64,000 bases of DNA. Origin: an uncultured Lachnospiraceae bacterium. Lineage in GTDB: Bacteria > Bacillota > Clostridia > UBA1381. Both the position numbers and the translations under genes were made by a program. The DNA lies in the NCBI GenBank assembly GCA_964447095.1, contig CAYUSE010000001.1, positions 4,576 to 68,575 of the forward strand, in the 5' to 3' direction. The notes under the pieces were generated by a model that had not been told where the DNA came from, made no database searches, and worked only from the letters and a program-made list of their open reading frames with translations. The stretch's first letter is position 1; each line of letters begins with the position of its first letter. Positions 37,886-62,979 of the stretch are shown here, piece after piece.

Positions 37886-38520
37886 ATGTTAAAGAAAATC
37901 AAGAAATTTCAAAAACATCTTATTTTGGAGGAAAAGACTAAAGCGACAGTTGATAAGTATGTTCATGATGTGACAGCGTTTGTTAAATGGCTGGACGGAC
38001 GTCGTATGAGTAAGGCCGCTGTGCAGAAATATAAGCAGTGGATTAAAACAGATTATAAGGTTAAAAGTGTAAATTCCATACTATCGTCATTAAATGCTTT
38101 TTTTCGTTGGATAAACCACCCTGAATACAGTGTAAAGGGAAAAACAGAATTGTTTTTATTCCGGATAATCTATGTGAAATGCTGATGATATATATAAGTG
38201 AAAAGAATATTAAAAATGGTCCTATATTTCTTACAAGTAACGGTAGACCGCTTAACAGAAGCAATATTTGTGCTGAAATGAAGTGCCTGTGTGAAAAAGC
38301 CGGAGTACAGTCAAGCAAGGTGTTTCCGCATAATCTAAGAAATTTGTTTGGCAAAACATATTACACGACATATCAGGATATAGTGCGTCTTGCTGATATT
38401 CTCGGACATACGAGTATAAATACAACGCGCATTTATACAGCGGAAAGTGGAGAGATACACAGAAGCCGTATTCAGAAACTTGATCTTGTACGGGATATTT
38501 ATGCTGAAGATACAAGATAA
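37886..38520 (+). pseudogene. Tyrosine recombinase/integrase remnant (frameshifted, internally deleted)
   Basis: ORF 37886-38185 carries an N-terminal SAM-like domain (TVDKYVHDVTAFVKWL...SVNSILSSLNAFFRW). ORF 38179-38520, in another frame, carries the C-terminal catalytic end (FPHNLRNLFGKTYY...LADILGHTSINTTRIYT). The segment with the first catalytic Arg is missing and the total length is far below ~300 aa. Confidence 0.7.
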
Positions 38521-38692: not shown

Positions 38693-41479
38693 TTATTCTG
38701 CATTTCTGACAAACACTAAATTATCAAGCTGTACCCATTCATTTGCATGAGCGTCTGAATACAAGCCAATCTCACACTGTCCGTTTAGGACTTCAATATC
38801 AGAAATTACAATCTCCGTCCACTCGTCGATCGCTGTTTTCAGCGGACAGTTAAACTCTTTGCCGCCGCTTGCGGCATATAGCTTGCATATATCCTGTCCG
38901 CCGCTGCTCTTCACCCACGCTTTTAACGTGTATTTTCCGTCAGACAAGCCGTCTATATTTTGCTTAATACAAGCGACATAATCCTCGCCGGCGCTTTGCT
39001 GCCATACAAAATTACCTGCGTACTGTCTGCCCGAAAGGTTACTGTTTGCAAGTCCTTCTATATTATCATATACTTCCCAGCCCGTAGGTATATATGTTTG
39101 CTTTCTGTCAGCTTCAAAATCCGGATTGTTTAAATAATTGTTGCCTTGTCCTATTTCCCACGTTCCCTTTTCCGCATCAAGCTTCCACTGGCTCAGATTA
39201 TTGAAATGCGGAATACCGCTTTCGTCCATAGTAACCGGAACCCACTGATTATAGCCTATACCGTTACCTGCAAAATCACACCAGCGGTCTCCGCAGTATA
39301 TGACTAAGTCCTGCTCACGGCCGTGAATTGTAGTGTAAAATCCCGCCTGCGAGTTATGCGCAAAGCTATCTTTCGTTCCGGGCATAATATGCGGCAAGCC
39401 TGTCTGAGCGTTGAATTTTCCAAGAATATCATCTGATTTAAAATAATATACGCGTGATGAATTCCAGCCGTATAAATCTGAGCCTGTAAAATAGTAATTG
39501 TTGTTATATTTAAACATGCAATTACCCTCAATGCCCTTTTTATCTCTCACTTCAACTGTGCCGTCCTCCTGCACAAATTCACCGTCTTTGTCATAATAAA
39601 TTTGATTTACATTGTCGCTGTCAATATCCAAAAAGTCTGATTCTCTAAGAGGCGCGACATACAAATATTCTCTGCCCGAGGTGCTTGAACAGATAACGTA
39701 TGCTTTGCCGTCATCATCCTGAAATACCGTTTGGTCACCTGTTGTTCCGTTTGCGAAATAGTCCACGCCTGACACGATTTTCTCAAATTTATAAGGACCT
39801 TCGGGTTTATCGCTTGTTGCAAACATCATTCCCGGAGCATACTGCGAAATCAGAACATACTTTTTTGTATTGCTGTTATAGGCTACGCCCATACGGCCTA
39901 CCCAGCCAGCCTCTTTCATACCCTTAGTTTCTCTTGTCATTGGATAACCTTCAAATTTCCAGCTCACCAAATCATCGGAGGAATAACAGGTAAACGCTTC
40001 AAATGCAGCGTTTCCTGCCTTTCCGTTTTCGGGATTTGCCGCGTAGACAGACGCTTCTGCATACTTAACGCCGTACCAGTAATATGTATCATCGAATTTG
40101 AATATACCGCCGCCCTGTGAATAAATAGGATTTCCGTCAGTATCCTTATAAAATGTGTCATTCGTGATAGTGTTGTCTGACTTTTCTACTGTTACAGTAC
40201 AGCTTGCGCTGTATCCGCCCTCCTCTGTTTTTGCAGTTATAATAGCTTTTCCTGCGCCGGCGGCAGTTACGATGCCGTCTGCAACCGTTGCGACAGAGGT
40301 ATCGCTGCTTGTCCATATAAGCTTTTTGTTGGATGCGCTTGACGGATTTACGCTTGATTTAAGCGAGCATACTGCTCCGATTTCCGGAAGCGTAACTGAA
40401 GATTTGTCAAGCTCAATTCCGCTTGTTTTTGTATATGGTGTAACTGTTACATTGCATTCGTCCGAAAATATTCCGCTGGCCGCTGTTATAACAGCTTTTC
40501 CTGTGCTGACAGGAGTTATAATTCCGTTTGAGGAAACTGTTGCCACGTTAATATCAGAGCTTGTCCAGATGACATCTTTATTATATGCGTATTCAGGCGT
40601 TATAGCGGCATCAAGCGTGCCGTTTTCTCCGCCTGCGCTGAGCGTCATTTCATTTTCTGATAATTCCAGCTTTTTTACGGAACCGATTGAAAGTGATTCA
40701 TTGCTTTTGCTTTCGTTGTCATAGACGACTTCTTGCCTCTTTGTTCTGGTCGGTAAATTTTTGCCGAGAAGATACGCTTTAACCGTATATGTACCATAAT
40801 CCTGCACAGCTTTAAAAGAACCTGTATTACTGTTCGCTCGGCAGCCGATTAGTTTATCATCGGCATCATATAAAGCAATTATACAAGCGGAGGTTTGTGT
40901 GTAGTCAATCTGAAAGCTTATTACGCCGTCTCCGTCAACACCCGTTTTCAGTTTTGAGATATAGCTCTCCGCTTCAGTAAGCGTCACATCGTCGGCATAT
41001 ATCTTTGTTTCATCCCATGTTCCGAATGACACAATATAATCCTGTGTATTGGGAGCTTCAAATTCAAAAACAATTTCCTGCCATTTGGTACTGATATTTA
41101 CATTAGTAGCGCTCACGGAACTAATCGCGGGCCATTCCTGCGCGCCGTCATTAAAGTTTATATCTATAGCGCAGTTTTTTTCAGCTTTCATATATAGCTT
41201 GAGCTGATATGTTACGCCTTTTTTTAAGGCCGTTCGCTGATACATTATACCGCTGCTTAGTAAAACTGCGCTTTTGCCTGTATGCGCGGTGTCTGTTCTT
41301 TCGGCTGTGCCCTCTGTGTACCATACGCCGGGTTCAGTAAATTTCCAGCTGCCTTCTCCGTACAGCTTATCTTCGAAATTGCTGTTTGCCAGCAAATTAT
41401 CTTTTTGGGCAAACGTATTGATGCTAAAAGCCGCAATAAGCAAAACAATCGCTGATACAGCGCTTATTATCTTTTTCAT
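38693..41479 (-). CDS. Secreted GH43-like (five-bladed beta-propeller; subfamily-24-like motif) enzyme with CBM-like ends and two Big_2 domains
   Basis: Signal peptide MKKIISAVSAIVLLIAAFSINTFA with SD GGAGG upstream of ATG 41479. Two Big_2 domains are present (VATVSSNGIITPVSTGKAVITAASG and VATVADGIVTAAGAGKAIITAKTE). The catalytic-region pattern is SQGGGIFKFDDTYYWYG, SSDDLVSWKFEG, MFATSDKPEGPYKF and IEGNCMFKYNNNYYF. N- and C-terminal NSNFED/NNPDFEAD CBM-like modules flank it. Confidence 0.6.
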   Translation of the reverse strand: MKKIISAVSAIVLLIAAFSINTFAQKDNLLANSNFEDKLYGEGSWKFTEPGVWYTEGTAERTDTAHTGKSAVLLSSGIMYQRTALKKGVTYQLKLYMKAEKNCAIDINFNDGAQEWPAISSVSATNVNISTKWQEIVFEFEAPNTQDYIVSFGTWDETKIYADDVTLTEAESYISKLKTGVDGDGVISFQIDYTQTSACIIALYDADDKLIGCRANSNTGSFKAVQDYGTYTVKAYLLGKNLPTRTKRQEVVYDNESKSNESLSIGSVKKLELSENEMTLSAGGENGTLDAAITPEYAYNKDVIWTSSDINVATVSSNGIITPVSTGKAVITAASGIFSDECNVTVTPYTKTSGIELDKSSVTLPEIGAVCSLKSSVNPSSASNKKLIWTSSDTSVATVADGIVTAAGAGKAIITAKTEEGGYSASCTVTVEKSDNTITNDTFYKDTDGNPIYSQGGGIFKFDDTYYWYGVKYAEASVYAANPENGKAGNAAFEAFTCYSSDDLVSWKFEGYPMTRETKGMKEAGWVGRMGVAYNSNTKKYVLISQYAPGMMFATSDKPEGPYKFEKIVSGVDYFANGTTGDQTVFQDDDGKAYVICSSTSGREYLYVAPLRESDFLDIDSDNVNQIYYDKDGEFVQEDGTVEVRDKKGIEGNCMFKYNNNYYFTGSDLYGWNSSRVYYFKSDDILGKFNAQTGLPHIMPGTKDSFAHNSQAGFYTTIHGREQDLVIYCGDRWCDFAGNGIGYNQWVPVTMDESGIPHFNNLSQWKLDAEKGTWEIGQGNNYLNNPDFEADRKQTYIPTGWEVYDNIEGLANSNLSGRQYAGNFVWQQSAGEDYVACIKQNIDGLSDGKYTLKAWVKSSGGQDICKLYAASGGKEFNCPLKTAIDEWTEIVISDIEVLNGQCEIGLYSDAHANEWVQLDNLVFVRNAE

Positions 41480-41948
41480 GATATATCCTCCAATGTATTG
41501 TTTTATATAGAATATTGTATCATATAAAAATAACCATTGCAAGGCTGATATTTGTTAGAATAACGCCGCGTTTATTTATCAGCGCGAAGCATATTTGAAA
41601 CTGAGTTTTTTAGGTTTTTTTACTTAAATCATTGATTTTTTCACAAAAATGTGATAAAATATATTGGTAAATTTATGTAATAATTACAAAAAGTAAGTTA
41701 AGGTCATATAATTTCAGTCAAAATTCTTGTTTCTATTCGGGTAATATTTTAAAGTGCCGGTTGTTTTGTTTGCCGGAATATTTAAGAATATCCGGCGGTT
41801 ATAAACAAATAATTGTAAAAAAATATAAAGGGGGATTTCAATGCTATGGTTTAAAGATGGTTTGTAGATATTATTGTTTAGTTAGAAATGTAAGCATATT
41901 ATTTTTCGAAATGTAATTTATAAATTGGAAGGAGAAAACAAGAGACAA

Positions 41949-44294
41949 ATGAAAAGAAAATACAAAAAACTTATCAGTACGGCGCTGTCGTTATCAATAT
42001 TGACAACTATTGTTCAGCTGCCGGCAAAAGCGGAACCAACGGATGTACATATTCCTGAAATACAAATAGGAGAAGATATACTTTCAAATGATGTATTCTA
42101 TCTTGCATCGGCTAATGCACAACTCAATGAAGGCGAGAATGAACGGTATTTACTCCGTCTTGCAAGAGGCGGAGATTGCACTTCCAAATCGGGAGTAACA
42201 GTTAAAATTTCTGATTTAACTGCAAAATATGGCAAGGATTATACAATATCACTGTATGGGAGCGATGTGTCAGCCGATAATCCGAAAGACAATCAGTCGT
42301 TTTTAGAGCAAATAAATGGTCAGGAATATACTGAAACACCGGTGTATTCTGATGAAGAATATGCCGAAATGCTCAAAAATGATGAAGAATTGCAGGCAAA
42401 AACCACGGAAGCGTTACAGGATACAATAGATTATTGGGAGGAATCAAGCGGTCTGATGGAAACAGAAGCGGAGATTTCGGAAGAAGACGCCGGAAGCGTC
42501 AAAACCAACCCAATTCATGAAGCGCGCGAAAAATACACAGGAATACAGGGTGAAGAACAGAGAGTTACTTCGACTACAGATACTATGCAGGAAATACAGC
42601 AAATGGCTAATGTTCTGACTGATGCGGTTGTCGGCGCAAATATTACGGTTGATTTTGAAGAAGGCGAAAGTGAGAAGTATATTGTAATTGATGTAAATGA
42701 TAATCACCAGAGTGACGGAGACAGATATTTTTATCTTATGCTTGCCGCGCCTTACGGAACAACTACGAACAGCGCCGCGTCAAGCTGCGCTGTTACCATT
42801 GCTGACGATGAAGAAAAAGTTTTATCAGAAGTAGGCTTTGCGCAAACGGAATACAGAGCAGCAGGACATACATATTACTTGCAGTTCAGCGGATTTTTGA
42901 TGAAATATGCAATGGGAAGAATAAACGTAAGAAAAGGACAGACAATAGAATTTACGAAAAAGACCGATAGTAATTTTATATATGTAAACAATCCGGAATA
43001 CATATCCAATGAAGATATTGTTGATGATACTAATTCTCGGGGATATAAAATTTTTGAACAGAAAAATGTTAGGGGGAGTAGTACATATTATCAACCCAAT
43101 TTAGAATGGTACAATTCTGATGCGGATGAAAGATATTATCCAAAACAAAACAGTTTCTATATAGGGATAGATTTTTATAATCCAAATAGCTATGAGGTAA
43201 GTATCGAGGTAAATAATTTAGTTGCAACCGAGAATAAAACGTATTTACAGCATTACATAAATAAAACAGGTGAAAACGTAGGGGCTATAACCGTTGCTCC
43301 AAAACAGCATGCACAATTATTTGATTACACTGCTAATAAGATGATATGCCACAGAATAGGAGACCTCCCCAGTTCATATATATTGTTTGATTTTATCGTA
43401 AAAAAAGCAAACGGGGTATCTATACCATATAACGAAGGAATAACTATCAGTTCATTAGCTGCATATAATTACGAAAATATGCGGCTAAAATCAAATGAGA
43501 GCAATATCTTAGTATATCAAAATAAACCTTTAAATCATGGTGATATGTTATATGGGTCAGATACAAGACCAACAGAGCATGATTTAAGGATTAAGTATAA
43601 AGGCATTGCTGAAAACCAATCAAATCAGATAGATACAAATTTAGAATTTACGGTAGACAATGGTACTCATGATGGGATTGAATTTGAACTTAAAGATAAA
43701 AATGGTATAATTAACGGAACATACCCCGCAAAACAAACAGATTGGAATGTGCAAATAAACCCGATTAATGATGAGTATGAAGCATTATTGCATACTACAA
43801 CAAAAAATCTTCATAGTTTCACATACGATTTTAATGGGACAAAAAAATGGTATTTTGATTATAAACATAGAAATACCGATTATCTTACAACAAGTGATAA
43901 TTCAACAGAAATAAACCAAAGTGTACCAAATAGCATTATAGCAAAAGCTGCTGAAGAAATTATATCAGGACATAAATCTACAGTTGGTGCTATTGATGAA
44001 TCAGCAATAGAAATGGGTTCGTGGGGTGTAGTCTATCATTATGTTATAACAGTAAATAATGTAGGAACAATAACAAAAACAGTAAAATATAGGATTAAAA
44101 CCGATGCACACCTTACACTTATTGGGATGCGTGAAAACGAAAATGATAAATACACCTTTAAAGATAGCGGTATGGATACAGCGTATCAAATACCATTTAC
44201 TATAGAAATTCCTCCGGGTCAAAAAACATTTGAAATAGTTACAATGTCAGGAGCAGGCAATGGAGGATTAGAGAATACTTTAATAGTAGAATAG
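41949..44294 (+). CDS. Secreted chimeric protein: N-terminal Calx-beta-like domain with an acidic insertion, fused to an unassigned AT-rich-encoded C-terminal region
   Basis: Signal peptide MKRKYKKLISTALSLSILTTIVQLPAKA. The Calx-beta halves are GVTVKISDLTAKYGKDYTIS and ITVDFEEGESEKYIVIDVNDNHQSDGDRYFYLML...VTIADDEE. Nucleotide composition becomes visibly more AT-rich after ~42.87 kb. The alternative TTG start is at 41925. Confidence 0.65.
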   Translation: MKRKYKKLISTALSLSILTTIVQLPAKAEPTDVHIPEIQIGEDILSNDVFYLASANAQLNEGENERYLLRLARGGDCTSKSGVTVKISDLTAKYGKDYTISLYGSDVSADNPKDNQSFLEQINGQEYTETPVYSDEEYAEMLKNDEELQAKTTEALQDTIDYWEESSGLMETEAEISEEDAGSVKTNPIHEAREKYTGIQGEEQRVTSTTDTMQEIQQMANVLTDAVVGANITVDFEEGESEKYIVIDVNDNHQSDGDRYFYLMLAAPYGTTTNSAASSCAVTIADDEEKVLSEVGFAQTEYRAAGHTYYLQFSGFLMKYAMGRINVRKGQTIEFTKKTDSNFIYVNNPEYISNEDIVDDTNSRGYKIFEQKNVRGSSTYYQPNLEWYNSDADERYYPKQNSFYIGIDFYNPNSYEVSIEVNNLVATENKTYLQHYINKTGENVGAITVAPKQHAQLFDYTANKMICHRIGDLPSSYILFDFIVKKANGVSIPYNEGITISSLAAYNYENMRLKSNESNILVYQNKPLNHGDMLYGSDTRPTEHDLRIKYKGIAENQSNQIDTNLEFTVDNGTHDGIEFELKDKNGIINGTYPAKQTDWNVQINPINDEYEALLHTTTKNLHSFTYDFNGTKKWYFDYKHRNTDYLTTSDNSTEINQSVPNSIIAKAAEEIISGHKSTVGAIDESAIEMGSWGVVYHYVITVNNVGTITKTVKYRIKTDAHLTLIGMRENENDKYTFKDSGMDTAYQIPFTIEIPPGQKTFEIVTMSGAGNGGLENTLIVE

Positions 44295-44316
44295 TATAGA
44301 ATAGGAGATGACAGTA

Positions 44317-45600
44317 ATGAAAAAAATATTGTTTGCAAATATAATTTGTGCTACATTAATTATGCTTTGCGTAACAAATGTGAGTGCAGAAAAGGTTAAT
44401 AATTTGGCTGAGAAATTAGATGAACTGATAATGGAAAGACAGTTTACGACAGAACAATTTTCACAAATGGATAAAGAATATCTTAAAGATTTTGATAAAT
44501 GGTTTTGGAATGATTATCTGCCGCCTACTAAGCTTTTAGGTAAAATGAATACAGATAGCGATGAAGCTGAATATGAATATTGTTTAAGTATGAATCGACC
44601 TGATTACTCTTATGGCGTATTGATGACCTATCTTGACACAAATAAATATGCAAAACAATATGCAGAAAATGAAGTGTTCAACTATTTACTTGATGATACA
44701 AAACAATATTGGGCTGTTTTGCATAAAAGGGGAAGTGGTGTAGCCGCCGAATTTAGAAAAGATGGTAGTCGCATTTATGATATGAATTTAGAAATCGGGG
44801 ATACATATGAAACAATTACAATAACACAAGAATTGATAGATTTGCTAAAAGATTCAAATAAAATAGAAACCATGCTTTTAGATAAAGGTGAAATGACAGT
44901 AACGGATTTAAAGTTATTCAGTATGCAAAACGGAATTACATTTTTGTATATAAAATGTGATAAAAACGAATATTTGATAAAGTTGTATGGGTTTTCCGGA
45001 TATTGTGAGTATATTCCTGAAATTGCAGGAAAAAAGTTGTATACAGTAAGCGATGTTTTGAGGTCGTTGGCAGTTCAAGAAGGTAGAGATTTGCCGTCCA
45101 GATTTGACCTGTCTCAAAATATTTCTAAAACAAAACGAACTTTTGAATCTGAAGCCAAAATGTTGCAAGACGAGGGTTTACTTAAAGGAAATGAAAACGG
45201 ACTTGATTTGTTAAAGCCGCTGACACGCGCAGAAGCGGTAACGTTGTTAGTGCGTGCGCTTGGTTTGGAAAGTGAGGTTGGAAATTACACGGACAGTCAA
45301 TTTTCGGATATTTCGTCTGATAACTGGGCTTCTCCGTATGCTGCGCTCGCCAAATCCCGAGGCATTGTAAATGGTGTAAGTGAAACGGAATTTGCTCCCG
45401 ATGAACAAGTAACGGCAGACCAATTTGCAACCTTTACTTTGCGAGCAATGGGCGAAAGGGATTTTGATTACACAGAAGGAATCAAAATGCTTGTTGATAA
45501 AGGCATAATCACACAAGAGAATGCTGAAACAATGGATTTCTTCACTCGCGGCGATATGGCTAAGATAATATATGAAGCTCGTGAAAAAGGATTGCTTTAA
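44317..45600 (+). CDS. Secreted protein with C-terminal SLH-like repeats (paralog A)
   Basis: Signal peptide MKKILFANIICATLIMLCVTNVSA. The C-terminus carries LKPLTRAEAVTLLVRALG, FSDISSDNWASPYAALAKSRGIVNGVSETEFAPDEQVTADQFATFTLRAMG and FFTRGDMAKIIY. ATG 44317 is better spaced from the AGGAG than 44308. Confidence 0.7.
   Translation: MKKILFANIICATLIMLCVTNVSAEKVNNLAEKLDELIMERQFTTEQFSQMDKEYLKDFDKWFWNDYLPPTKLLGKMNTDSDEAEYEYCLSMNRPDYSYGVLMTYLDTNKYAKQYAENEVFNYLLDDTKQYWAVLHKRGSGVAAEFRKDGSRIYDMNLEIGDTYETITITQELIDLLKDSNKIETMLLDKGEMTVTDLKLFSMQNGITFLYIKCDKNEYLIKLYGFSGYCEYIPEIAGKKLYTVSDVLRSLAVQEGRDLPSRFDLSQNISKTKRTFESEAKMLQDEGLLKGNENGLDLLKPLTRAEAVTLLVRALGLESEVGNYTDSQFSDISSDNWASPYAALAKSRGIVNGVSETEFAPDEQVTADQFATFTLRAMGERDFDYTEGIKMLVDKGIITQENAETMDFFTRGDMAKIIYEAREKGLL
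45151..45590 (+). repeat. Direct repeat copy 1 (3' ends of the tandem SLH paralogs)
   Basis: This ~440-nt stretch aligns with 46445-46885 with only scattered substitutions by eye. The upstream gene parts are much more diverged. Confidence 0.7.
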
Positions 45601-45613
45601 GGGATATGCTATC

Positions 45614-46900
45614 ATGATGAAAAAAATAATTTCTTTAATTGTATGTTTACTATTAATGATTAATACAAGTATTTCGGTATTTGCTGAAAACAATGTAAAA
45701 ATACAAGGTTTGAGAGAGTGTATAGACGGAATACTTTGGAGAGGCAGTGAACATTTAGATGTAAAATCCAAAATAGAATCGGATTATTCAAAAAGTTTGG
45801 ATGATTTAGCAAAAATGGCTCAGTCATACCCAAACTATGTGTTAGAGAAAATGGGGTTGGATCCTAATAAAGATATGCCAATTGATCAACAAATAAAAGA
45901 AGAGTTTGCGCTTGATTATGAAAAAGGATTTGTGACAAGCGCGACAAATACGCATAAATATCTTGTTGATTATGCAAACGCAGGATGTTTTTCATATTTG
46001 TTAAACAACAACAAAATGCTTAGAATTCCGCATACCGTAAGACTTGGATACGAAGAGTATTTGCTCGACGGGAATAAGTTAGAAGATTATGAGGATAAAA
46101 AATATGGGCTTCGCTATATTATTATTGATAAAGAGGTATTTGACTATTTGGAGAATATCAACTCTATTGAAACAAGCCTGCTCGAAAGAGGAGAAACAGT
46201 TGTTAAAGACATTGAACTTTTTGGCTTAAGCGATTTGACACTGTTATACATTAAAGGTGAATATGATGAATATTTAGTAAAATTAAACGAATATGGTGAC
46301 AGAATTTTGACGGCTATAGAGCCATATGTTCTCTATAAGGCGAATGAGCTGATAAGCGCATTTGATGATTACTCAGTCAAAAACTCCCCTTATTCGCAGG
46401 TGTTATCAGAACTCGTGCTTGCTCCAAAGCCGACATTTTCATCAGAAGCGGAATCATTGCAATCGGAGGGGTTACTTAAAGGAAACGAGAAAGGCTTGGA
46501 TTTATTAAAACCGCTGACACGTGCAGAAGCTGTAACATTATTGGTGCGTGCGCTTGGTATGGAAAGCGAGACCGGGAATTACAAAACAAGCCAATTTTCA
46601 GATATTCAATCTGATAACTGGGCTTCTCCGTATGCTGCACTTGCCAAATCACGGGGTATTGTAAACGGTGTAAGCGAAACGGAATTTGCTCCCAATGAAC
46701 AAGTAACAGCAGACCAATTTGCAACATTTACATTGCGTGCAATGGGTGAAAGTAACTTTGATTATACAGAGGGTGTGAATATTCTTATCAATAAAGGCAT
46801 AATCACACAAGAGAATGCTGAAACAATGGATTTCTTTACTCGCGGCGATATGGCAAAAATAATATATGAATCCCGTGAAAAAGCTTGCTTTAAAAAATAA
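45614..46900 (+). CDS. Secreted protein with C-terminal SLH-like repeats (paralog B)
   Basis: Signal peptide MMKKIISLIVCLLLMINTSISVFA. The C-terminal ~145 aa are near-identical to paralog A, while the N-terminal parts are related but diverged. Confidence 0.7.
   Translation: MMKKIISLIVCLLLMINTSISVFAENNVKIQGLRECIDGILWRGSEHLDVKSKIESDYSKSLDDLAKMAQSYPNYVLEKMGLDPNKDMPIDQQIKEEFALDYEKGFVTSATNTHKYLVDYANAGCFSYLLNNNKMLRIPHTVRLGYEEYLLDGNKLEDYEDKKYGLRYIIIDKEVFDYLENINSIETSLLERGETVVKDIELFGLSDLTLLYIKGEYDEYLVKLNEYGDRILTAIEPYVLYKANELISAFDDYSVKNSPYSQVLSELVLAPKPTFSSEAESLQSEGLLKGNEKGLDLLKPLTRAEAVTLLVRALGMESETGNYKTSQFSDIQSDNWASPYAALAKSRGIVNGVSETEFAPNEQVTADQFATFTLRAMGESNFDYTEGVNILINKGIITQENAETMDFFTRGDMAKIIYESREKACFKK
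46445..46885 (+). repeat. Direct repeat copy 2 (3' ends of the tandem SLH paralogs)
   Basis: See 45151-45590. Confidence 0.7.
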
Positions 46901-46924
46901 GTTATTATTATATGACAAGTTAAC

Positions 46925-46969
46925 GGCATATTGCATGATTAATTTTAATGCAATATGCCAATTTTTTTT
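46925..46969 (+). terminator. Intrinsic terminator after SLH paralog B
   Basis: The stem GGCATATTGCAT / ATGCAATATGCC has an 11-nt loop and is followed by AATTTTTTTT. Confidence 0.75.
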
Positions 46970-46990
46970 AAATCTCCTCAACGCCCTTGA

Positions 46991-48181
46991 CAAAATGTTT
47001 ATGATAATACTCCAAATCCCGGAGATAAGGTAAATGTAAATATCAAGGTTAAGAATGCGGGACTTACATACGCAGACGGCTATACAATCAATATTTACGA
47101 GATGAAAAACGGCGTTAAGGGTAATCTTATAGAAAACATTGTTTTTGACGGAACGCTGCTGCCGGGAAATATAAATTCGCATAATTTTGAGTGGACGACT
47201 CCTGCTGACTTAGACGGAACAAGTCTTTATGCAGAAGCGCAGGAGGGCAGTATGACGAATTACTCTGAATTTGAGTCGGAAAAATTCAAATTAAAGCCTG
47301 ATTATGTTGTTGACGGAGCAAATATTTATCAGAACGGAAATGGTTATCATATAAAATGCAGCGTTACCAATACAGGCAATGCGCCATCATCGGCTGAAGA
47401 CTCCTTGGAAATATTGCTTGCAGGACCGTATGAAATATCATACAGCTATTCAAAAGAAGAGTGTGAATTGGCAAAGATACCCTTTGGTGAAATTGGAATA
47501 GGTGAGCAGATAATGATTGACAGTGATTTTAATATTGCTCCTGAATTGTTTGAACACTATGGATATATAGATTGTTTTGTAGCAGGAAAGGACAAAGACG
47601 GAAATAGAATTACGGAAGGTGAGAGAGTCCGCCTGATGGCTGCAAGCCCGCTCGAAGTTATGCTTAACGGCAAACAATTCCCTGAAAATATTGAAATGTC
47701 GGCGGGAGAGACAATGGAATTTGATATTTCATGTGTGCCAAACAGACTTAATGCAGATTTGAACGTATCATTAAGCTCTGACGATTCGGGAATTGTAGAA
47801 TTTGACGGAACAAAGCTTATAGCTGTTTCAGAAGGAACAACAACAGTACATGGTGTGCTTTGGCCTTATGGTACAACCACTGAGGATATAACGATAACAG
47901 TCAATAATTCAATACCTGTAGTTGTAAACACTCCCACCGTAACCGAAACGTCGTTTGATTATGACCTTGTTATAGGCGAAACAGCATCAGATTATGATTT
48001 GTATGTCGCATTATATGCAGCTGACCATACTCTGTTGGGAGTAAAGAAAAATAAATCGGCAGACAAATTTAATTTGCCGATTGAAACCGGCTGGGCATTA
48101 AAGATTATGATGTGGGATAAAAACACAATGAAACCAATAGGCTCGGCTATCACATACACAGCCGAGAATATGCATAATTGA
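46991..48181 (+). pseudogene. 5'-truncated remnant of a large surface-protein gene (CARDB-like x2, Big_2-like, recurrent C-terminal tail)
   Basis: The frame is open from 46991, after an in-frame TGA at 46988-46990, and already encodes the start of a CARDB-like domain (DNTPNPGDKVNVNIKVKNAG...). The first ATG (47102) falls inside that domain, and no signal peptide or SD is present. Domain order mirrors the C-terminal part of the 54936 protein. The 47102-48181 part could still be translated. Confidence 0.5.
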
Positions 48182-48229
48182 TGTTAGAGATTACTTAAAA
48201 TAATAAAATACAGAAAGGATAAAAAGGAT

Positions 48230-48382
48230 ATGTGCAAAAAAGAAAAAGAAATAGAAAATGAAAAAGCTCAGGAGATAAACCTTGAAGATTTAAGTCAAAT
48301 CACGGGTGGCGCCGGCAAAACAACGCGTCCGCCGACAGTTACTATACACAAATATACTGAAACCGTGAAAGAAAAAGCATAA
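48230..48382 (+). CDS. Double-glycine-leader peptide precursor 1 (50 aa)
   Basis: Not in the ORF track because it is under 60 aa. It encodes MCKKEKEIENEKAQEINLEDLSQITGG/AGKTTRPPTVTIHKYTETVKEKA. The leader matches the class II bacteriocin/pheromone GG-leader pattern: hydrophobic at -4, -7 and -12, acidic at -8 and -9, and GG at -2/-1. An AAAGGA...AAGGA purine-rich SD lies upstream. A homolog lies at 62824 and a C39-peptidase ABC exporter lies 2.3 kb downstream. Confidence 0.75.
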   Translation: MCKKEKEIENEKAQEINLEDLSQITGGAGKTTRPPTVTIHKYTETVKEKA

Positions 48383-48391
48383 ATGATTAAG

Positions 48392-48426
48392 AATCCTTTG
48401 CTGTGTATGCAGCAAAGGATTTCTTA
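48392..48426 (+). terminator. Candidate intrinsic terminator after peptide gene 1
   Basis: The stem AATCCTTTGCTG / CAGCAAAGGATT has a 6-nt loop and is followed by TCTT, a weak U-tract. Confidence 0.5.
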
Positions 48427-48494
48427 AAGAAGAATATAGAAGATTAAAAAGAAAATTTTGAATAAGAATATAAAGTTGTTATTGGTAAAATCTA

Positions 48495-48523
48495 TTGAAA
48501 ATTATTTTGATGTAATGTATAAT
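48495..48523 (+). promoter_or_regulatory. Near-consensus sigma-A promoter for the exporter/giant-protein operon
   Basis: TTGAAA (48495-48500), exactly 17 nt of spacer, then TATAAT (48518-48523), ~75 nt upstream of ATG 48598. Confidence 0.55.
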
Positions 48524-48597: not shown

Positions 48598-49740
48598 ATG
48601 AAAAAAATATATATACTTTTAATTTCTGTCTTTATATTATACATACTGTGCGGCTGCGGAGGCAATCCGCTGACACAAACTGTAAAAATTGCCGTTATGG
48701 GAAATCAGGCTGATTTTTATCCCGGCTACAAAGAGGGTATTGAGAGAGCGGTAAATGATTTGAATAAGGAATATGCCGACAGCGGATGTACCGTAGAATA
48801 TGAATTTTACAATGATAACGGAAATTATGAGAAAGGCGCGGCTATTATTGATACACTCGCATCAGATAAAAGTATTACGGCTGTTATCGGAGCAGTGGAT
48901 ATGGATATAAACAAAACCGCCGCTCATGTTTTTAACGAAGCGGAGAAGCTTTTTGTTATTCCGTTTTTTCTCTACGATAGTGTGTATGAGGATAATTATT
49001 ATGATACAGTGTTTTCGTTGTGTAATTCGGCAAAAACGGTCGGAGATATACTGCGCGGCGCGGCGGCGGATACAAAAGCCAAACGTTGGGCGGTATGTGC
49101 GGCAGAAGGTGAGTTTGAACGCACGGAAATGAACGGATTTTTGCAAAACAGTGCGGCAGACGGTATTGCAGTTGTTGACTGTGCGAGTATGTCAATGCTT
49201 GTAAATCAATTTGATGAAGTCTATAAGTATTGGGATATTTTAGGCGTTGAGGGTGTCGTAATGTTTCCCTCAGGCAGTGAGGGCTTTGATATTTTAAAAA
49301 AAATAAAGAAAAAAAATCCCGATATTATTTGTGCGGGAGATACTGCTTTTGACAATAGTGTAGTTATGGATAATGATCCTGAGCTTCTGGCAGCAATGAA
49401 CGGATTTATAATGGCGGACGAATTCATGCTGCGTAATGAAGCTGATGGTGAGAACAGTTTAATTACAGATATGGAAGAAGAATACAAACAGAAAACAGGG
49501 AACGATTTTGACGTATGGTATATCCAGGCATATAATGCCGTGAGAATGATTGCTGATACAGCAATACAGAATCGGGTCTTTAATTCTGCGGATATAGCAA
49601 AGCTTCTGCACGAAAATGATTACAATGGCTTATATCAGCGTTTTAAGTGTGATGAAAAAGGATTGCAGGTCACGGACGTATTTAAATACAGCGTAATGGA
49701 TGAAAGGGGATACTTCGAGGAATATGAATTGAAGGATTAG
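48598..49740 (+). CDS. Orphan lipoprotein with a type-1 periplasmic-binding-protein fold (LivJ/Peripla_BP_6-like)
   Basis: Signal peptide plus lipobox (LYILCGC/GG). KIAVMGNQADFYPGYKEGIERAVNDLNKEY...ITAVIGAVDMDINKTAAHVFNEAEKLFVIP resembles branched-chain-amino-acid-type binding proteins. No cognate permease or ATPase of that type is nearby. Confidence 0.6.
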   Translation: MKKIYILLISVFILYILCGCGGNPLTQTVKIAVMGNQADFYPGYKEGIERAVNDLNKEYADSGCTVEYEFYNDNGNYEKGAAIIDTLASDKSITAVIGAVDMDINKTAAHVFNEAEKLFVIPFFLYDSVYEDNYYDTVFSLCNSAKTVGDILRGAAADTKAKRWAVCAAEGEFERTEMNGFLQNSAADGIAVVDCASMSMLVNQFDEVYKYWDILGVEGVVMFPSGSEGFDILKKIKKKNPDIICAGDTAFDNSVVMDNDPELLAAMNGFIMADEFMLRNEADGENSLITDMEEEYKQKTGNDFDVWYIQAYNAVRMIADTAIQNRVFNSADIAKLLHENDYNGLYQRFKCDEKGLQVTDVFKYSVMDERGYFEEYELKD

Positions 49741-49748
49741 GTGAAAAT

Positions 49749-50630
49749 ATGCAAAATTTATTCAGAAAAGAAGCGCTTGAAAGCTTTTCTTCAAACAACG
49801 GAATTACTAAGGGGATACGCGCGGTAAGCATTAAAGCAGTGATTTTTACGGTTTTGATTGCAGTATGCTCAGCAGCCTTTGCTGTGTGGCTTGTGTTCGG
49901 AACGGTTTATGAAACTGTATCCGTAAGCGGAGTAATATGGCCCGCGGAAAATAACGGCGGCGTGTATGCAAAATCCGGAGGAGTTATAACAAAGACGGTC
50001 GTTGCTTCGGGTGACATTGTGAAAACGGGAGATATTCTCGCCGTAATTCCGCAAGAAGATATTTTAACAAAAATAAAAAATAAAAAAGAGAGCGGCGCTG
50101 CGGACGAGGAGCTTAATACGCTGTATGACGCATACGACAGACTTTCCGTGGCACGCTCGAATATTGATGGAATTGTGACGAATATTGCCAATGAAAATAT
50201 TTGTATAAACAAAGGTGATAAAATAGCAGAGGTTGTGCCGTACAGTGAAGACGGCAATAATAAAATACTGACTGCGTTCATTCCTTCTGACAAAAGCGGT
50301 CTTGTAAAGCTTGGAATGGAAGCTCAGGTAATGCCTGATTTTGCTCCGCGCGAAAAATACGGATATATAAAAGCATATATTTCAGGAATTTCATCTTATT
50401 CTGTTACGGGGCAGAGCATAAAAGACTCAAACAGTGAACTGTTTTTATCAGAGTTTGACGAAAGAGAAAGCTATATACAGCTTGAAATAACACTTGTATC
50501 GGATGCAAATGCTCAGAGCCGGCTGAAATGGTCAAATCCTAACAGCGGAAGTACAGATGTTGCTATGGGAACGGTATGCGGAGCAGACATAGTAATTAAA
50601 AAATGCCGTCCGTATGAATGGTTGTTTTAG
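49749..50630 (+). CDS. HlyD-family membrane-fusion / bacteriocin secretion accessory protein
   Basis: N-terminal FRKEALESFSS followed by a single TM (AVIFTVLIAVCSAAFAVWLVF). Lipoyl-like hairpins are present (GGVITKTVVASGDIVKTGDILAVI and GIVTNIANENICINKGDKIAEVVP). It sits 9 nt upstream of the C39 ABC gene. Confidence 0.7.
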   Translation: MQNLFRKEALESFSSNNGITKGIRAVSIKAVIFTVLIAVCSAAFAVWLVFGTVYETVSVSGVIWPAENNGGVYAKSGGVITKTVVASGDIVKTGDILAVIPQEDILTKIKNKKESGAADEELNTLYDAYDRLSVARSNIDGIVTNIANENICINKGDKIAEVVPYSEDGNNKILTAFIPSDKSGLVKLGMEAQVMPDFAPREKYGYIKAYISGISSYSVTGQSIKDSNSELFLSEFDERESYIQLEITLVSDANAQSRLKWSNPNSGSTDVAMGTVCGADIVIKKCRPYEWLF

Positions 50631-50639
50631 GAGGGCATT

Positions 50640-52781
50640 ATGGAGAAGGTAAAAAAGGTACGTCCCATACTGCAAATGGAAGCGACTGAATGCGGCGCAG
50701 CATCGCTTGCCATGATTTTAGGCTATTACGGCAAGACTGTAACGCTTGAGGAGCTAAGGCGCGAGTGCGGAGTATCGCGAAACGGCGTAAACGCGAAAAG
50801 CATTGTAAACGCGGCGCAGTATCATGATTTAAACCCGAGAGCTTTGCGCGTGAATATTGAAGGTGCGGAAAGAGTAAAAACACCTGCGGTCATACATTGG
50901 AATATGGACCATTTTCTTGTGCTTTGCGGATTTAATAAACGCGGCGCAGTGCTTGCAGATCCGGCATACGGGATTAGGACCGTAAGCATGGAGGAATTTT
51001 CAAAATCTTTTACCGGCATTGTAATAGAGCTTACTCCTGCAGAGAATTTTAAAAAAGATAAGGGAGGAAAAAATGCAAATGATTACATAAGCTTCTGCGT
51101 AAAGAGTTTTTTGCCGAATATATTTTATTTTATACTGCTTGAATTATGCGCAATTATAGGAAGCGGCGCGGTATTGTTTTTAAATTCCGTGTTCATAGAT
51201 AAAATTCTTATCGGTGAGAACACGCAGAATTTAACGATTATACTTAAAACGCTTTTATGCGCAGGATTTATAACAGCGGCGGCAGCTATACTTAATACGA
51301 ATATTAGGCACAGGATAGGCAAACAGCTAAATATGAAGATAAATTCGGGATTTATTGAGCGTATGCTAAGGCTGCCGGTTGAATTTTTTGCGCAGCGAAG
51401 CGAGGGAGATTTGGCAAACTGTCAGAATGCGAATATGCAGATGGGCGCGAAGCTCAGCAGTATGATGTCGCCTGTACCCGGATATATAATGCAGATTATT
51501 ATATATTTTATATTGATTGCCGTATTGGACGCGCATATTGCTTTTATAGGAATATTATGCGCGTCGGCAAATATTTGTGCAATGATAATAAGTTCTCAAA
51601 AATATGAGGAAAAGATGCGTTCCTACAGCCGTGATATGGGCGCTTTGCAGAGCGATATTTCACAAACGATTGATATGATTGAAACAATAAAAGCCTGCGG
51701 CGCTGAAGACGCTGTATTTGCTCGGCTTATGGCGGCGGGTACGCAGACAGTTAACACAAAAACCCAGATTGACAAAACAGGAGTATATACAACCGGTTTG
51801 TTTTCCTTTTTAAATGCTCTCGGCGCAGGCGCTGTGTTAATTGCCGGTATATGGAAGATACTTGCCGGTTCTATGACTATGGGTATTCTGATAGCGGCGC
51901 AGGCTTTTGTCGCGGCAATGCTGGAACCCTTGGGAGATGCAGTAAATGCAGGAATAGAAATGCAGACCTTAAAGGGCGAAACAGCGCGTACAAATGATGT
52001 TATGCACTATAACGAGGATGATAAATTCCTTGATGACAGCATTGAACAGACAAAAGAAATTGACGGAGATATTGAACTGAAAAATATCAGCTTTGGCTAC
52101 AATCCGCTTGACGCACCGCTTATAGAAGGATTTAACCTTGTGATAAAAAAGGGCGGCAGTATTGCGATTACAGGAGCAAGCGGCAGCGGAAAATCCACAG
52201 TTGCAAAAATCATTGCGGGGCTTTACCGTGAGGATAGCGGATGTGTTACCTTTAACGGCACGTTAAGAAAGGAAATAAATCATTATTATTTTTATTCAAA
52301 AACAGCAGTGGTAAGTCAGAATATACGGCTGTTTGACGGTACGGTGCTTGACAATATAACAATGTGGGATGACAGTATTCCTTATGACGAAGTTGTTGCG
52401 GCGGCAAAGGCGGCGTGCATACATGACGATATAATAGGCAGAAGAAACGGCTACCGTGAAATTGTTACGGAAAACGGCAGAAACTTTTCAGGCGGTCAGC
52501 GGCAGCGTATTGAGATAGCGCGCGCTCTCGTAAAAAAACCGTCCGTAATTATAATGGATGAAGCAACAAGCGCGCTTGATGCAGATACTGAGGAAACCGT
52601 TATGAATAATATAAAAGCAATGGGAATTACTCGGATAGTTGTTGCTCACAGACTGTCAACAATTATGGACAGTGATGAAATCATAGTTATGGAAGACGGT
52701 AAAATCTCCGAGCGCGGAACACATGACGAGCTTATGATGAAAAACGGCGCATATTGTGCATTGGTAAGGAGTGTGGGATAG
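50640..52781 (+). CDS. Peptidase-C39-domain ABC exporter (bacteriocin/peptide-cleaving, ATP-binding and permease)
   Basis: The N-terminal C39 domain has the catalytic Cys in LQMEATECGAASLAMILGYYG and His in VIHWNMDHFLVL. A 6-TM domain follows, with Walker A GASGSGKST, signature FSGGQRQR and Walker B VIIMDEATSALD. Confidence 0.9.
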   Translation: MEKVKKVRPILQMEATECGAASLAMILGYYGKTVTLEELRRECGVSRNGVNAKSIVNAAQYHDLNPRALRVNIEGAERVKTPAVIHWNMDHFLVLCGFNKRGAVLADPAYGIRTVSMEEFSKSFTGIVIELTPAENFKKDKGGKNANDYISFCVKSFLPNIFYFILLELCAIIGSGAVLFLNSVFIDKILIGENTQNLTIILKTLLCAGFITAAAAILNTNIRHRIGKQLNMKINSGFIERMLRLPVEFFAQRSEGDLANCQNANMQMGAKLSSMMSPVPGYIMQIIIYFILIAVLDAHIAFIGILCASANICAMIISSQKYEEKMRSYSRDMGALQSDISQTIDMIETIKACGAEDAVFARLMAAGTQTVNTKTQIDKTGVYTTGLFSFLNALGAGAVLIAGIWKILAGSMTMGILIAAQAFVAAMLEPLGDAVNAGIEMQTLKGETARTNDVMHYNEDDKFLDDSIEQTKEIDGDIELKNISFGYNPLDAPLIEGFNLVIKKGGSIAITGASGSGKSTVAKIIAGLYREDSGCVTFNGTLRKEINHYYFYSKTAVVSQNIRLFDGTVLDNITMWDDSIPYDEVVAAAKAACIHDDIIGRRNGYREIVTENGRNFSGGQRQRIEIARALVKKPSVIIMDEATSALDADTEETVMNNIKAMGITRIVVAHRLSTIMDSDEIIVMEDGKISERGTHDELMMKNGAYCALVRSVG

Positions 52782-54915
52782 CGTGCATACAAAATTAAGA
52801 GAAGAAAACGAGAAAATACAAGAAAAAAACTATAAAGCATCAGCACGCGCATACGAAAATATGAATGCGGCGCTTATTGGTGAAACTGACCTTGACGGGG
52901 TTAATGCAGTCCTGAAATTTTTAAATATAAAGGAGCGCGTTGACGGCAGTCTTTCGACTTCGGAGCAGCTTAAATTTATAGAAGAAAAGTTTTTTATTAA
53001 GATGAGATACGTGGAGCTTGACGAGGATTGGTATATAACGGCGGCAGTTCCGATGCTTGTAAAAACTGATGAAGGACGCTGGCTTGCTGTGATACCAAGG
53101 GCTGACGGAACATGCTGCTGTATAGATAACGGCAGAAAAATAAAGGTAACGCATAAAAATGCAGGACTGTTTACAAACAGTGCAATGTATTTTTATAAGG
53201 TAATGAAAAGCGATAAAATCACAATGCGGGATTTGTTTTCGTTTATGGTGAAATGCATATCGAAAAAAGGCATGATTGCCGTTCTTGCCGCGTCAGTGTT
53301 TACAGCTTTTGCGGGAATGCTTGTGCCGTGGGCGAACAGCTTTATATTTTCAAGGATAATTCCCGCAGGTGAAATATCGGGAATAGCGGCAGCGGCTGCG
53401 CTGATACTTTCTTCTGTGCTTGCCGCGGCAATACTCGGACTTTTGCAGTCGCTTATTCTTACCAACTCAATGCTTAGGACGGATACATACATTCAGAGCG
53501 CAGTATTTTCCCGTGTTTTGTCGCTGAGGACAGAGTTTTTTAAGACTGCAAAGTCAGGCGAGCTGTCACGAATGATAACAGAATTTTCCGATATAACAAA
53601 AATTGTATCCGTAAGAGGCATAAGCGCGAGTATCAGCATAGCGCTGTCGCTGGTATATCTTATACAGATTTATATATATGCTCCGGAACTGTTCGGAGTG
53701 GTTATATTATTTTCCGTTCTGCTCTGTGTAATGATGATTGCGGAGAGTGTGCTGAGTTCAAAATGGATGAGAAAATATTCTTCTTCGCTGTCGAAGATGT
53801 CAGGCTTTTGTTACGAGCTGTTTTCAGGCATTGAGCAGATAAAGCTGAACGGCGCGGAGGCAAGAATGATGCGCCGGTGGAGCGAGCGTTATCTTGATGC
53901 GTCGCTAAATGAGGATAAGCCGTTTTTGCTAAAATATTCGGATGTATTTTATAAGCTGATAAGGTTATTTACAACTGCCGTTATATTTCTGCTCGGCATG
54001 CGGCTGACTGCTTCGGACTATATTGCATTTTCATCGGCGTATGGAGCATATACCTCGGCAAGTGTAGGAGCAGCGGTTATTATACAAATGATTGCGGGTT
54101 TCCGTTCTGCATATTCGCTTATAAAGCCTGTACTTTATGCGGAATGTGAGGAATACGGCTCTGAAAAAAAGAAGCCTGAAAGGCTGAACGGCGAAATTAC
54201 GGTATCAGATTTGCATTTCCGCTACGATAAAGACTCGCCCTATGTTTTAAACGGTCTGTCAGTACATATACGCGCAGGTGAAAGCGTGGGAATAATAGGT
54301 ACATCAGGATGCGGAAAATCAACATTGATAAGATTACTGCTTGGCTTTGAGAAAGCAGAGAAGGGCAGCATCTACATAGATGGCTTTGACCTGAGGGAGC
54401 TTGATTTAAAAAGCTGCCGTCAGAAAATCGGAGCCGTTCTCCAGAATACAGGGCTAATATCGGGAGATATTTATTCAAATATCACGATAACGAAGCCGGC
54501 TGCAAGTATGGAAGAGGTGGCGGAGGCTGTGGAAACGGCAGGGTTAACCGACACTATAGCCGCTCTGCCTATGGGTTTGCATACACCTGTAAGTCAGGAA
54601 AACTGTACTCTTTCGGGAGGACAGCGGCAGAGAGTGCTTATTGCAAGAGCGATTATCGCTAAACCGTCAATTCTAATTTTTGACGAAGCGACCTCAGCGC
54701 TTGACAATATCACTCAGGCGAAAATAACGGAAGGTGTAAACAAGCTTGATTGTACAAAAATTATTGTTGCGCATAGATTGTCTACAATCGAGAGCTGTGA
54801 CAGGATTTTAGTTATGGATAAGGGGGTGATTGTGCAGGAAGGAACATGGGCTGAGCTGAAAAAAACTGATGGATTATTTAAACAGCTTGAAAAAGCAAAT
54901 TATCAGTTAAAATAA
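52771..54915 (+). CDS. Second ABC exporter (permease plus ATPase) lacking a peptidase domain
   Basis: The ~150-aa N-terminal region has no C39 Cys/His motifs. A TM domain follows, with Walker A GTSGCGKST, signature LSGGQRQR and Walker B ILIFDEATSALD. The GTG at 52771 overlaps the upstream gene; the in-frame GTG at 52783, 1 nt after the upstream stop, is better spaced from AAGGAG. Confidence 0.85.
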   Translation: MWDSVHTKLREENEKIQEKNYKASARAYENMNAALIGETDLDGVNAVLKFLNIKERVDGSLSTSEQLKFIEEKFFIKMRYVELDEDWYITAAVPMLVKTDEGRWLAVIPRADGTCCCIDNGRKIKVTHKNAGLFTNSAMYFYKVMKSDKITMRDLFSFMVKCISKKGMIAVLAASVFTAFAGMLVPWANSFIFSRIIPAGEISGIAAAAALILSSVLAAAILGLLQSLILTNSMLRTDTYIQSAVFSRVLSLRTEFFKTAKSGELSRMITEFSDITKIVSVRGISASISIALSLVYLIQIYIYAPELFGVVILFSVLLCVMMIAESVLSSKWMRKYSSSLSKMSGFCYELFSGIEQIKLNGAEARMMRRWSERYLDASLNEDKPFLLKYSDVFYKLIRLFTTAVIFLLGMRLTASDYIAFSSAYGAYTSASVGAAVIIQMIAGFRSAYSLIKPVLYAECEEYGSEKKKPERLNGEITVSDLHFRYDKDSPYVLNGLSVHIRAGESVGIIGTSGCGKSTLIRLLLGFEKAEKGSIYIDGFDLRELDLKSCRQKIGAVLQNTGLISGDIYSNITITKPAASMEEVAEAVETAGLTDTIAALPMGLHTPVSQENCTLSGGQRQRVLIARAIIAKPSILIFDEATSALDNITQAKITEGVNKLDCTKIIVAHRLSTIESCDRILVMDKGVIVQEGTWAELKKTDGLFKQLEKANYQLK

Positions 54916-62823: not shown

Positions 62824-62979
62824 ATGTCAGACGAAAAAAAGACAACTGTGAAAAACGATGAAATCACTGAACAGGAAATTAGTCTTGACGAATTGGATAA
62901 TGTGACAGGCGGTTCGATTGGCAATGTAAAATATACAAAGACAGTCGATATCAGCGGTGATACCAAAAGAAAAGCATAA
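62824..62979 (+). CDS. Double-glycine-leader peptide precursor 2 (51 aa)
   Basis: Not in the ORF track. It encodes MSDEKKTTVKNDEITEQEISLDELDNVTGG/SIGNVKYTKTVDISGDTKRKA. A perfect SD AAGGAGG (62808-62814) lies inside the end of the giant gene, and the ATG sits 1 nt after its stop. The leader and the core motifs (KYT-x-TV, C-terminal K-x-KA) are homologous to the 48230 peptide. Confidence 0.75.
   Translation: MSDEKKTTVKNDEITEQEISLDELDNVTGGSIGNVKYTKTVDISGDTKRKA

Follow-up and report, generated by a model that had tools for sequence, protein, structure and literature searches.

We analysed a 64,000-nucleotide (nt) stretch of a metagenome-assembled genome (MAG) from an uncultured Lachnospiraceae bacterium (contig CAYUSE010000001.1, positions 4,576 to 68,575 of the forward strand; hereafter the window) and identified its open frame 46991–48181 (translation P0001) as a very young pseudogene fragment. 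It is the 3' end of a giant surface-protein gene, giant A, whose interior has been replaced by foreign DNA in this strain and whose small 3' neighbour, a peptide gene with a double-glycine (GG) leader (peptide A), is intact. The same locus holds a second, uninterrupted giant gene with its own peptide gene (giant B and peptide B), and comparison with other genomes supports the view that a giant surface-protein gene and a small GG-peptide gene form a conserved unit in these uncultured Clostridia. For the explanation as a whole, i.e. a locus of two units, replacement within giant A, and pairing of giants with peptides, we estimate a probability of about 0.82.

Giant A in the window and in sister strains

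A 98%-identical twin of peptide A (P0134) was found on five public contigs. The public assemblies L007 (an ENA assembly, 27.9 kb), L008, and L009 belong to the same species, share 99.2–99.7% nt identity with the window (blastn), and contain an intact giant A of 2,451 or 2,459 amino acids (aa). Giant A of L007 (L007:1964-9319, 2,451 aa) has a signal peptide and Calx-beta domains and ends in the same terminal sequence, ...TAENMHN*, as the remnant; it is followed by peptide A, the lipoprotein gene, the HlyD gene, ABC1, ABC2, and giant B. An earlier first-pass annotation of this DNA had suggested looking in related strains for an intact version of the upstream copy, and in L007, L008, and L009 that copy is a complete 2,451-aa gene that encodes a signal peptide and has peptide A behind it. 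Between the remnant and L007 there are 5 differences in 1,179 positions (2 synonymous, 3 non-synonymous), and the remnant contains no stop and no frameshift; the disruption of giant A is therefore, as judged from these sequences, very recent and strain-specific.

The full-length architecture of giant A (signal peptide, Calx-beta N-terminus, a centre of ~1,500 aa, all in a single frame) is not found in the window; because sister strain L007 has it, the window copy is a broken member of the family. Codons 1–306 and the last ~393 codons (47003–48181) are retained, with the foreign block between them. Up to ...EYRAAG the window protein matches intact giant A at every residue, window positions 46994–48427 correspond to L007:8132-9565, and 5.26 kb of the giant A interior has been swapped for 4.13 kb of unrelated sequence. 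The first-pass annotation had called the frame a 5'-truncated remnant. Truncated it is, given the intact sister copies, but not by a simple 5' truncation, as the 5' end survives 4 kb upstream at 41949–42866.

What the annotation had said about the start of the frame, namely that it begins in mid-domain after a terminator and an in-frame TGA and has neither a Shine-Dalgarno sequence nor a signal peptide, is borne out in every part. A strong intrinsic terminator (hairpin 46925–46959 followed by U8, −18.3 kcal/mol, z −5.0) closes the upstream SLH-protein gene and lies ~20 nt before the TGA. Uninterrupted homology to L007 resumes only at 47003, which places the breakpoint between 46994 and 47003 and, on this alignment, assigns the TGA to the foreign block and not to a nonsense mutation of giant A. 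At the first ATG of the remnant (47102), which falls within a beta-sandwich domain of the AlphaFold2 model, neither a Shine-Dalgarno sequence nor a signal peptide was found. That model has three confident beta-sandwich domains (residues 1–100, 105–216, and 220–305; mean predicted local distance difference test score 81), and its Foldseek matches are tandem immunoglobulin (Ig)-like arrays. Residues 307–396 form a separate small C-terminal domain, unlike the PT linker and SLH anchor of giant B. We call the frame a pseudogene fragment because its start codon context is missing and because it is positioned behind a terminator.

The foreign block has a G+C content of 31–33%, compared with 40–45% in its flanks. 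Its left junction creates an in-frame chimeric open reading frame (ORF) of 781 aa (41949–44294), in which the giant A signal peptide and first Calx-beta domain are joined to the 475-residue C-terminus of a large protein of the M60-like-peptidase type; at both fusion points the break falls within a domain. Over its whole length the 475-aa piece aligns with 37% identity to the C-terminus of ORFs of 1,553 and 1,582 aa in G012 and G013, genomes of two other genera. In G013 the ORF encodes an M60-like peptidase and has an SLH-protein gene behind it, the same gene order as in the block. By this resemblance the block probably represents the 3' part of an operon of an M60-like peptidase and an SLH protein, including its own terminator. 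The two tandem SLH genes of the block are 82% identical at their 3' ends (45131–45430 and 46425–46724), where the G+C content rises locally to 38–39%, and have diverged 5' parts.

All three donor-type homologs have Ala-Gly just before the junction, as does giant A in EYRAAG, and the crossover would therefore have used microhomology of at most ~6 nt (GCAGGA, the Ala-Gly codons) at the left junction, a value that derives from 37%-identical homologs. The flanks of the block contain no direct or inverted repeats, and a site-specific or transposon-type insertion was rejected on this ground. A search of 163 genomes of the family returned no near-identical source, the best match having 66% nt identity. 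The rest of the MAG (70% complete) contained neither the centre that giant A has lost nor the 5' part of the donor gene, and the MAG accordingly shows no sign of strain mixture. When peptide A, the chimeric ORF, and the second SLH protein were looked up by exact sequence, no other public assembly with the arrangement of the window was retrieved.

The strains differ at further positions around the locus. The AT-rich segment behind peptide A (Table 1) holds a near-consensus sigma-70 promoter (TTGAAA-17-TATAAT, 48495–48523, 11/12 match). L007, L009, L010, and L011 carry an unrelated 31-nt segment in its place, and that of L007 has no promoter match. This promoter for the exporter and giant B may compensate in the window strain for read-through lost from giant A, a lead from a single case (n = 1). 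Upstream of giant A, a 949-aa CBM_4_9/Big_2/GH43 gene (38693–41542, minus strand) is intact in the window, and the corresponding L007:884-1519 region lacks window positions 39556–41540, the 5' two-thirds of that gene. The window breaks giant A and L007 breaks the GH43 gene; each strain thus has its own gene-breaking rearrangement here. A 113-aa ORF at the edge of this strain-variable region (38179–38520) is a truncated recombinase gene, whose match to the phage-integrase (tyrosine recombinase) family is confined to the C-terminal half.

The giant family, its peptides, and the export cassette

Direct BLASTP of P0001 against giant B gave no match (E > 3), and profiles were therefore required. 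A phmmer search of P0001 against 1.8 billion cluster representatives yielded 130 matches, mostly proteins of 2,500–2,800 aa; residues ~5–306 align at positions ~2100–2420 of more than 100 giants, and 108 of the 130 matching proteins also match giant B. A hidden Markov model (HMM) built from the 130 matches hit giant B at residues 2053–2369 with model positions 11–327, collinearly (33.3 bits, E 1.3e-12). This is nearly the range (~2030–2350) that the first-pass annotation had singled out for comparison. Protein P0008 is collinear with giant B over the Calx-beta N-terminus, the centre, and the SLH anchor. Giant B aligns without interruption to residues 1539–2681 of P0010, to which P0001 aligns at 2073–2395. 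Among 20 module sequences compared with Pfam, CARDB was detected in 14 and Big_2 or HL_N-beta Ig-like domains in 11, so that the CARDB and Big_2 labels are supported at the level of the family by these sequence matches. The annotation's statement that remnant and giant B carry the same domains in the same order at low identity thus holds for the three-domain module, which is found by profile and missed by BLASTP, but not for the tail of the remnant (residues 307–396), which differs. Homologs of P0001 carry conserved sequence 5' of the module (...LMASY..PCGAVEVT.I...) that is absent from the window.

Two further regions of the giants were recorded. A glycine-rich, hydrophobic, beta-like stretch (e.g. 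...VQIYVGVGLAGTLGIRGGGGFEA...) occupies residues ~1320–1500 of giant B (58.9–59.5 kb) and ~1290–1400 of L007 giant A, and the region 3' of it in giant B (residues 1541–1982) is conserved across the giant family. Neither the glycine-rich stretch nor the 1541–1982 region had a sequence match in Pfam or PDB.

The peptide A precursor consists of the leader MCKKEKEIENEKAQEINLEDLSQITGG and the core AGKTTRPPTVTIHKYTETVKEKA. Its gene is intact and differs from that of L007 at 3 positions, one of them a conservative T-to-S exchange in the core. Peptides A and B are paralogous (BLASTP E 1e-5). The GG-leader pattern is present in both (...INLEDLSQITGG and ...ISLDELDNVTGG) and in 20 orthologs: a terminal GG, hydrophobic residues at −4, −7, and −12, and an acidic residue at −8 or −9. 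No Cys occurs in the cores, which are charged and hydrophilic. No NCBIfam model matched either peptide, and in Pfam the only match was a sub-threshold one of peptide B to a lantibiotic leader. Both the remnant and giant B are thus directly followed by a GG-leader peptide gene, as the first-pass annotation had noted. The hairpin behind peptide A is likely a terminator or attenuator.

The export cassette lies between the two peptide genes. Its three transport genes score below the equivalog cut-offs of their best NCBIfam models (TIGR03794, 119.5 against 156.2; TIGR03796, 756.9 against 853.3; TIGR03797, 582.1 against 709.4). The Peptidase_C39 domain (E 1e-34, residues 8–135) contains the motifs ECGAAS, HWNMDH, and ADP and, by its sequence, is apparently intact.

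Table 1. Features of the two-unit locus (window coordinates)
Feature	Position	Strand	Description
Giant A, surviving 5' end	41949–42866	+	Signal peptide, first Calx-beta domain (Pfam), ~12 residues of the second; 7 differences in 918 nt to L007:1964-2881
Foreign block	42867–46996 (end approximate)	+	~4.13 kb, low GC; no match to L007:2882-8140
Foreign block, content			475 codons fused in frame, to 44294; SLH genes 44308–45600 and 45572–46900 (Pfam SLH); terminator 46925–46969
In-frame TGA	46988–46990	+	Directly 5' of the remnant, inside the foreign block
Remnant frame, 3' end of giant A	46991–48181	+	396 open codons; 99.2% identical to L007:8132-9565
Remnant, layout			CARDB-like (first ~10 residues gone), CARDB-like, Big_2-like, small C-terminal domain
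Peptide A gene	48230–48382	+	50 codons; starts 48 nt after the remnant stop; 27-aa double-glycine leader (...INLEDLSQITGG), 23-aa hydrophilic core
Hairpin after peptide A	48387–48427	+	−22.6 kcal/mol, weak U tract; common to sister strains
AT-rich segment	48428–48553	+	126 nt; window strain only
Export cassette	48598–54915	+	Four genes
Peripla_BP_6 lipoprotein	48598–49740	+	Pfam
HlyD-type adaptor	49749–50630	+	Best NCBIfam match TIGR03794
C39-peptidase ABC transporter	50640–52781	+	Best NCBIfam match TIGR03796
Second ABC transporter	52771–54915	+	No peptidase domain; best NCBIfam match TIGR03797
Giant B, intact	54936–62822	+	2,628 aa; signal peptide, Calx-beta domains, long centre, CARDB-like/CARDB-like/Big_2-like (2053–2369), PT linker, three SLH domains
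Peptide B gene	62824–62979	+	1 nt after the giant B stop; B-type core (SIGNVKYTKTVDISGDTKRKA)

A single-sequence search of genome contigs with P0001 found no relatives, and the genomes were searched with the module alignment instead. This search covered 150 genomes of the family; with the window genome, 30 of 151 genomes and 10 of 25 genera were positive. Twenty A-module loci were fetched (L051–L070, 380 kb). A GG-leader peptide gene on the same strand lies directly 3' of the giant in 12 of them, comprising all 11 giants with strong A-type modules and L070, which has an ortholog of giant B and a B-type peptide. Giant and peptide genes are separated by 1–48 nt where the start is unambiguous, with an AAGGAGG-like Shine-Dalgarno sequence; the peptide start listed for L054 overlaps the giant stop and probably lies upstream of the real one. 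The GG motif was matched nowhere else in the 380 kb, and the 2.0-Mb MAG gives four obvious false positives (~2 per Mb). The pattern search missed the peptide of L080 (Ala at −4), which was recognised by eye. In at least 7 loci from other genera the giant is directly preceded by all four cassette genes (lipoprotein-HlyD-ABC1-ABC2), and 3 of the 12 peptide loci (L053, L059, L061) have no adjacent cassette. The 8 loci without a peptide gene carry more divergent giants; in 5 of them another large ORF follows, and in 2 others the contig ends with little or no sequence beyond the giant.

Four of these loci (L066, L067, L068, and L069, from genomes G097, G149, G068, and G133) represent a divergent giant clade without a peptide gene. 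Here a second large ORF (1,343–1,778 aa or more) starts within ~40 nt of the giant stop or, in L068, overlaps the giant's end by ~30 nt; that of L069 begins like an adenylation enzyme of the nonribosomal peptide synthetase type.

A search with the giant B module found B-type giants in eight other genomes, and all 8 informative loci have a B-type peptide right 3' of the giant. In a tree of the conserved central region, L007 giant A falls inside an 11-member clade of giants with peptide A (support 99/97) and giant B pairs with its ortholog (100/100). Leader identity over positions −10 to −1 is 0.67 between types A and B and 0.61–0.72 within types; core identity is 0.19 between types and 0.55–0.59 within them. 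The type of the peptide core co-varies with the type of the giant. The first-pass annotation had argued from this single locus that the peptide and the giant protein belong together, and the wider sample agrees: 11 of 11 A-type and 8 of 8 informative B-type giants have a peptide gene, with a core that follows the giant.

A genome of the same genus has the cassette, giant B, and peptide B, with no giant A upstream. As orthologs of both lineages, A and B, occur in other genera and this relative has the B unit only, the A/B duplication is, on the phylogenetic evidence, ancient within the family, and the tandem layout A-cassette-B is particular to this species. A recent local tandem duplication was rejected in view of the deep A and B lineages and the B-only genome. 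The proposal of an ancestral duplication of a giant-and-peptide unit followed by disruption of one copy is thereby supported, with the refinement that the duplication is old and the disruption a recent replacement of the interior by foreign DNA.

Alternative explanations and known systems

The disrupted gene could be an artefact, the assembler having spliced 4.1 kb from another lower-GC organism or locus into a giant A that is intact in the real genome, as in L007. Such a chimera would suit an arrangement seen in this MAG only, a fragmented MAG (341 contigs, 70% complete), and a block whose G+C content deviates from that of its flanks. It would, however, have to re-enter the same gene in the same order and orientation at both junctions, in frame at the first, through an inferred overlap of at most 6 nt that is far below any assembler k-mer, and the MAG has no separate contig for the giant A centre or the donor 5' part. 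The nearby 126-nt promoter segment is also strain-specific, which indicates that the window strain truly differs from L007 in this region. We consider a chimera unlikely.

If 47102–48181 were instead a real gene of 359 aa, it would encode a small stand-alone three-domain protein resembling the C-terminal module of the giants. Its frame is fully open, and the databases contain short proteins over the same module (P0014, 448 aa; P0028, 449 aa; P0007, 244 aa). P0014, however, starts at an internal position of the longer P0011, which marks these short entries as fragments; the ATG at 47102 has no Shine-Dalgarno sequence or signal peptide and lies inside a beta-sandwich domain; and in 99%-identical strains this DNA forms the 3' end of a 2,451-aa gene. 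The first-pass annotation had named a complete stand-alone gene with its own signal peptide in related genomes as speaking against its proposal; no such gene was seen, and the only apparent stand-alone homolog is P0014. With P0014 an internal fragment of a longer protein, the idea of a stand-alone gene was rejected, and we give it next to no credence.

The association of peptides with giants might also be accidental, in which case the GG peptides would be common bacteriocins or pheromones that belong to the ABC cassette alone. The peptidase-ABC cassette flanked by the two peptide genes suffices for their processing and export, and GG-leader peptides such as those of ComC/ComAB and the class II bacteriocins normally need no giant partner. 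Yet the peptide gene sits at the 3' end of the giant gene and not beside the transporter, it stays behind the giant in loci of other genera without an adjacent cassette (L053, L059, L061), the core type tracks the giant type, and the hydrophilic, charged, Cys-free cores are unlike class II bacteriocins. Mere coincidence is thus highly unlikely.

Three points weigh against our own interpretation of a two-unit locus with a recently replaced giant A. The disrupted arrangement is known from one MAG contig only; the estimate of microhomology comes from 37%-identical homologs and not from the actual donor; and the case for the peptide as a ligand or partner of the giant would be made by gene linkage and co-variation only.

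Compared with ComC/ComAB, BlpC/BlpAB, and class II bacteriocin systems, the locus shares a leader of 25–30 residues with the pattern L-x-x-(E/D)-L-x-x-(V/I)-x-G-G, an ABC transporter with an N-terminal C39 domain (Cys/His motifs), and an HlyD-type accessory protein. It differs in that no histidine kinase or response regulator, immunity gene, or modification enzyme was identified within ~15 kb of the peptide genes, in its hydrophilic, Cys-free cores, and in the position of the peptide gene as the 3' neighbour of a co-varying surface-protein gene of ~2,400–2,800 codons. No cognate histidine kinase or response regulator is among the ORFs annotated at 34.6–64 kb (MgtC, GH1, PHP, an integrase fragment, GH43, SLH proteins, the cassette, the giants, and an AraC-type regulator at 63221), and a ComC-like pheromone role would, as inferred from this gene content, have to operate with no kinase or regulator in the locus. 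The AraC-family gene (63221–64000; AraC_binding and HTH_18), 240 nt 3' of peptide B, is the only regulator-like gene adjoining the locus.

A related three-gene exporter with a very different cargo was described by Haft et al. 2010 (PMC2887384), comprising an HlyD protein (TIGR03794), an ABC transporter with C39 (TIGR03796), and one without C39 (TIGR03797). The cassette resembles this NHLP/Nif11 (NHLM) system in its three transport genes, in their identical order, and in having the same models as best NCBIfam matches. Unlike it, the cassette scores under the equivalog cut-offs, has the Peripla_BP_6 lipoprotein as an extra conserved first gene, and is paired with cargo whose leaders are short (24–30 residues) and classical, with no Pfam or NCBIfam match to NHLP or Nif11.

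With large SLH-anchored surface proteins of Clostridia the giants have in common a Sec signal peptide, N-terminal Calx-beta domains, and C-terminal CARDB-like and Big_2-like sandwiches, as well as SLH anchors in giant B and most family members. They are set apart by a centre of ~1,500 residues without a Pfam match and by their link to a peptide gene and often an export cassette, and giant A ends in a small non-SLH domain. The disruption resembles pseudogenisation by illegitimate recombination with horizontally acquired DNA in its sharp mid-domain breakpoints, minimal microhomology, foreign G+C content, and intact sister copies. Unlike a simple deletion or insertion-sequence insertion, it is a replacement that fused the start of giant A in frame with foreign coding sequence, as a chimeric ORF, and brought two foreign SLH genes under the giant A promoter. 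A full-text literature search found no description of a giant/peptide pairing. The remnant is an ordinary young pseudogene, and the unit is an undescribed variant of GG-peptide export systems.

Proposed history and significance

In this species two paralogous two-gene units flank a single export cassette, in the order giant A, peptide A, the lipoprotein, the HlyD adaptor, the C39-ABC transporter, the second ABC transporter, giant B, and peptide B. Strain comparison shows that in the window strain the interior of giant A was swapped for a foreign low-GC fragment, and illegitimate recombination is the probable mechanism. The chimeric 781-aa protein, headed by the giant A signal peptide and first Calx-beta domain, and the two SLH proteins would thereby come under the promoter of giant A. 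The final 393 codons of giant A are left behind the terminator with no start site, next to a surviving peptide A gene.

For the peptides, we propose that the C39-ABC transporter with the HlyD adaptor cleaves the GG-leader precursors after the GG and exports the cores. One exporter could serve both types, because the leader is common to A and B peptides. Among possible roles of the core of ~21–23 residues, the most likely is that of a ligand or partner of its own giant or of the cassette lipoprotein; an antibiotic or bacteriocin role appears unlikely from the composition of the core. A more specific model can be put forward only tentatively: the exported core may be a dedicated extracellular partner of its own giant, docking onto it, completing one of its domains, or being handed over by the lipoprotein, so that giant and peptide would make up a surface structure of two components, with matching specificities for A and B.

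Since the locus adds a second, independent copy of the unit and pairing is type-matched across genera, the gene pair becomes a defined family. The locus also documents how a surface-protein gene is remodelled in gut Clostridia, via short-homology replacement with foreign SLH-protein cassettes. It offers a natural experiment, namely near-identical strains with and without giant A, both with peptide A, that differ in the promoter before their shared exporter. If the partner model is true, the window strain would be a natural 'orphan peptide' mutant, with giant A lost, peptide A retained, and a strong promoter of its own gained by the export operon; such strains could show whether the peptide needs the giant.

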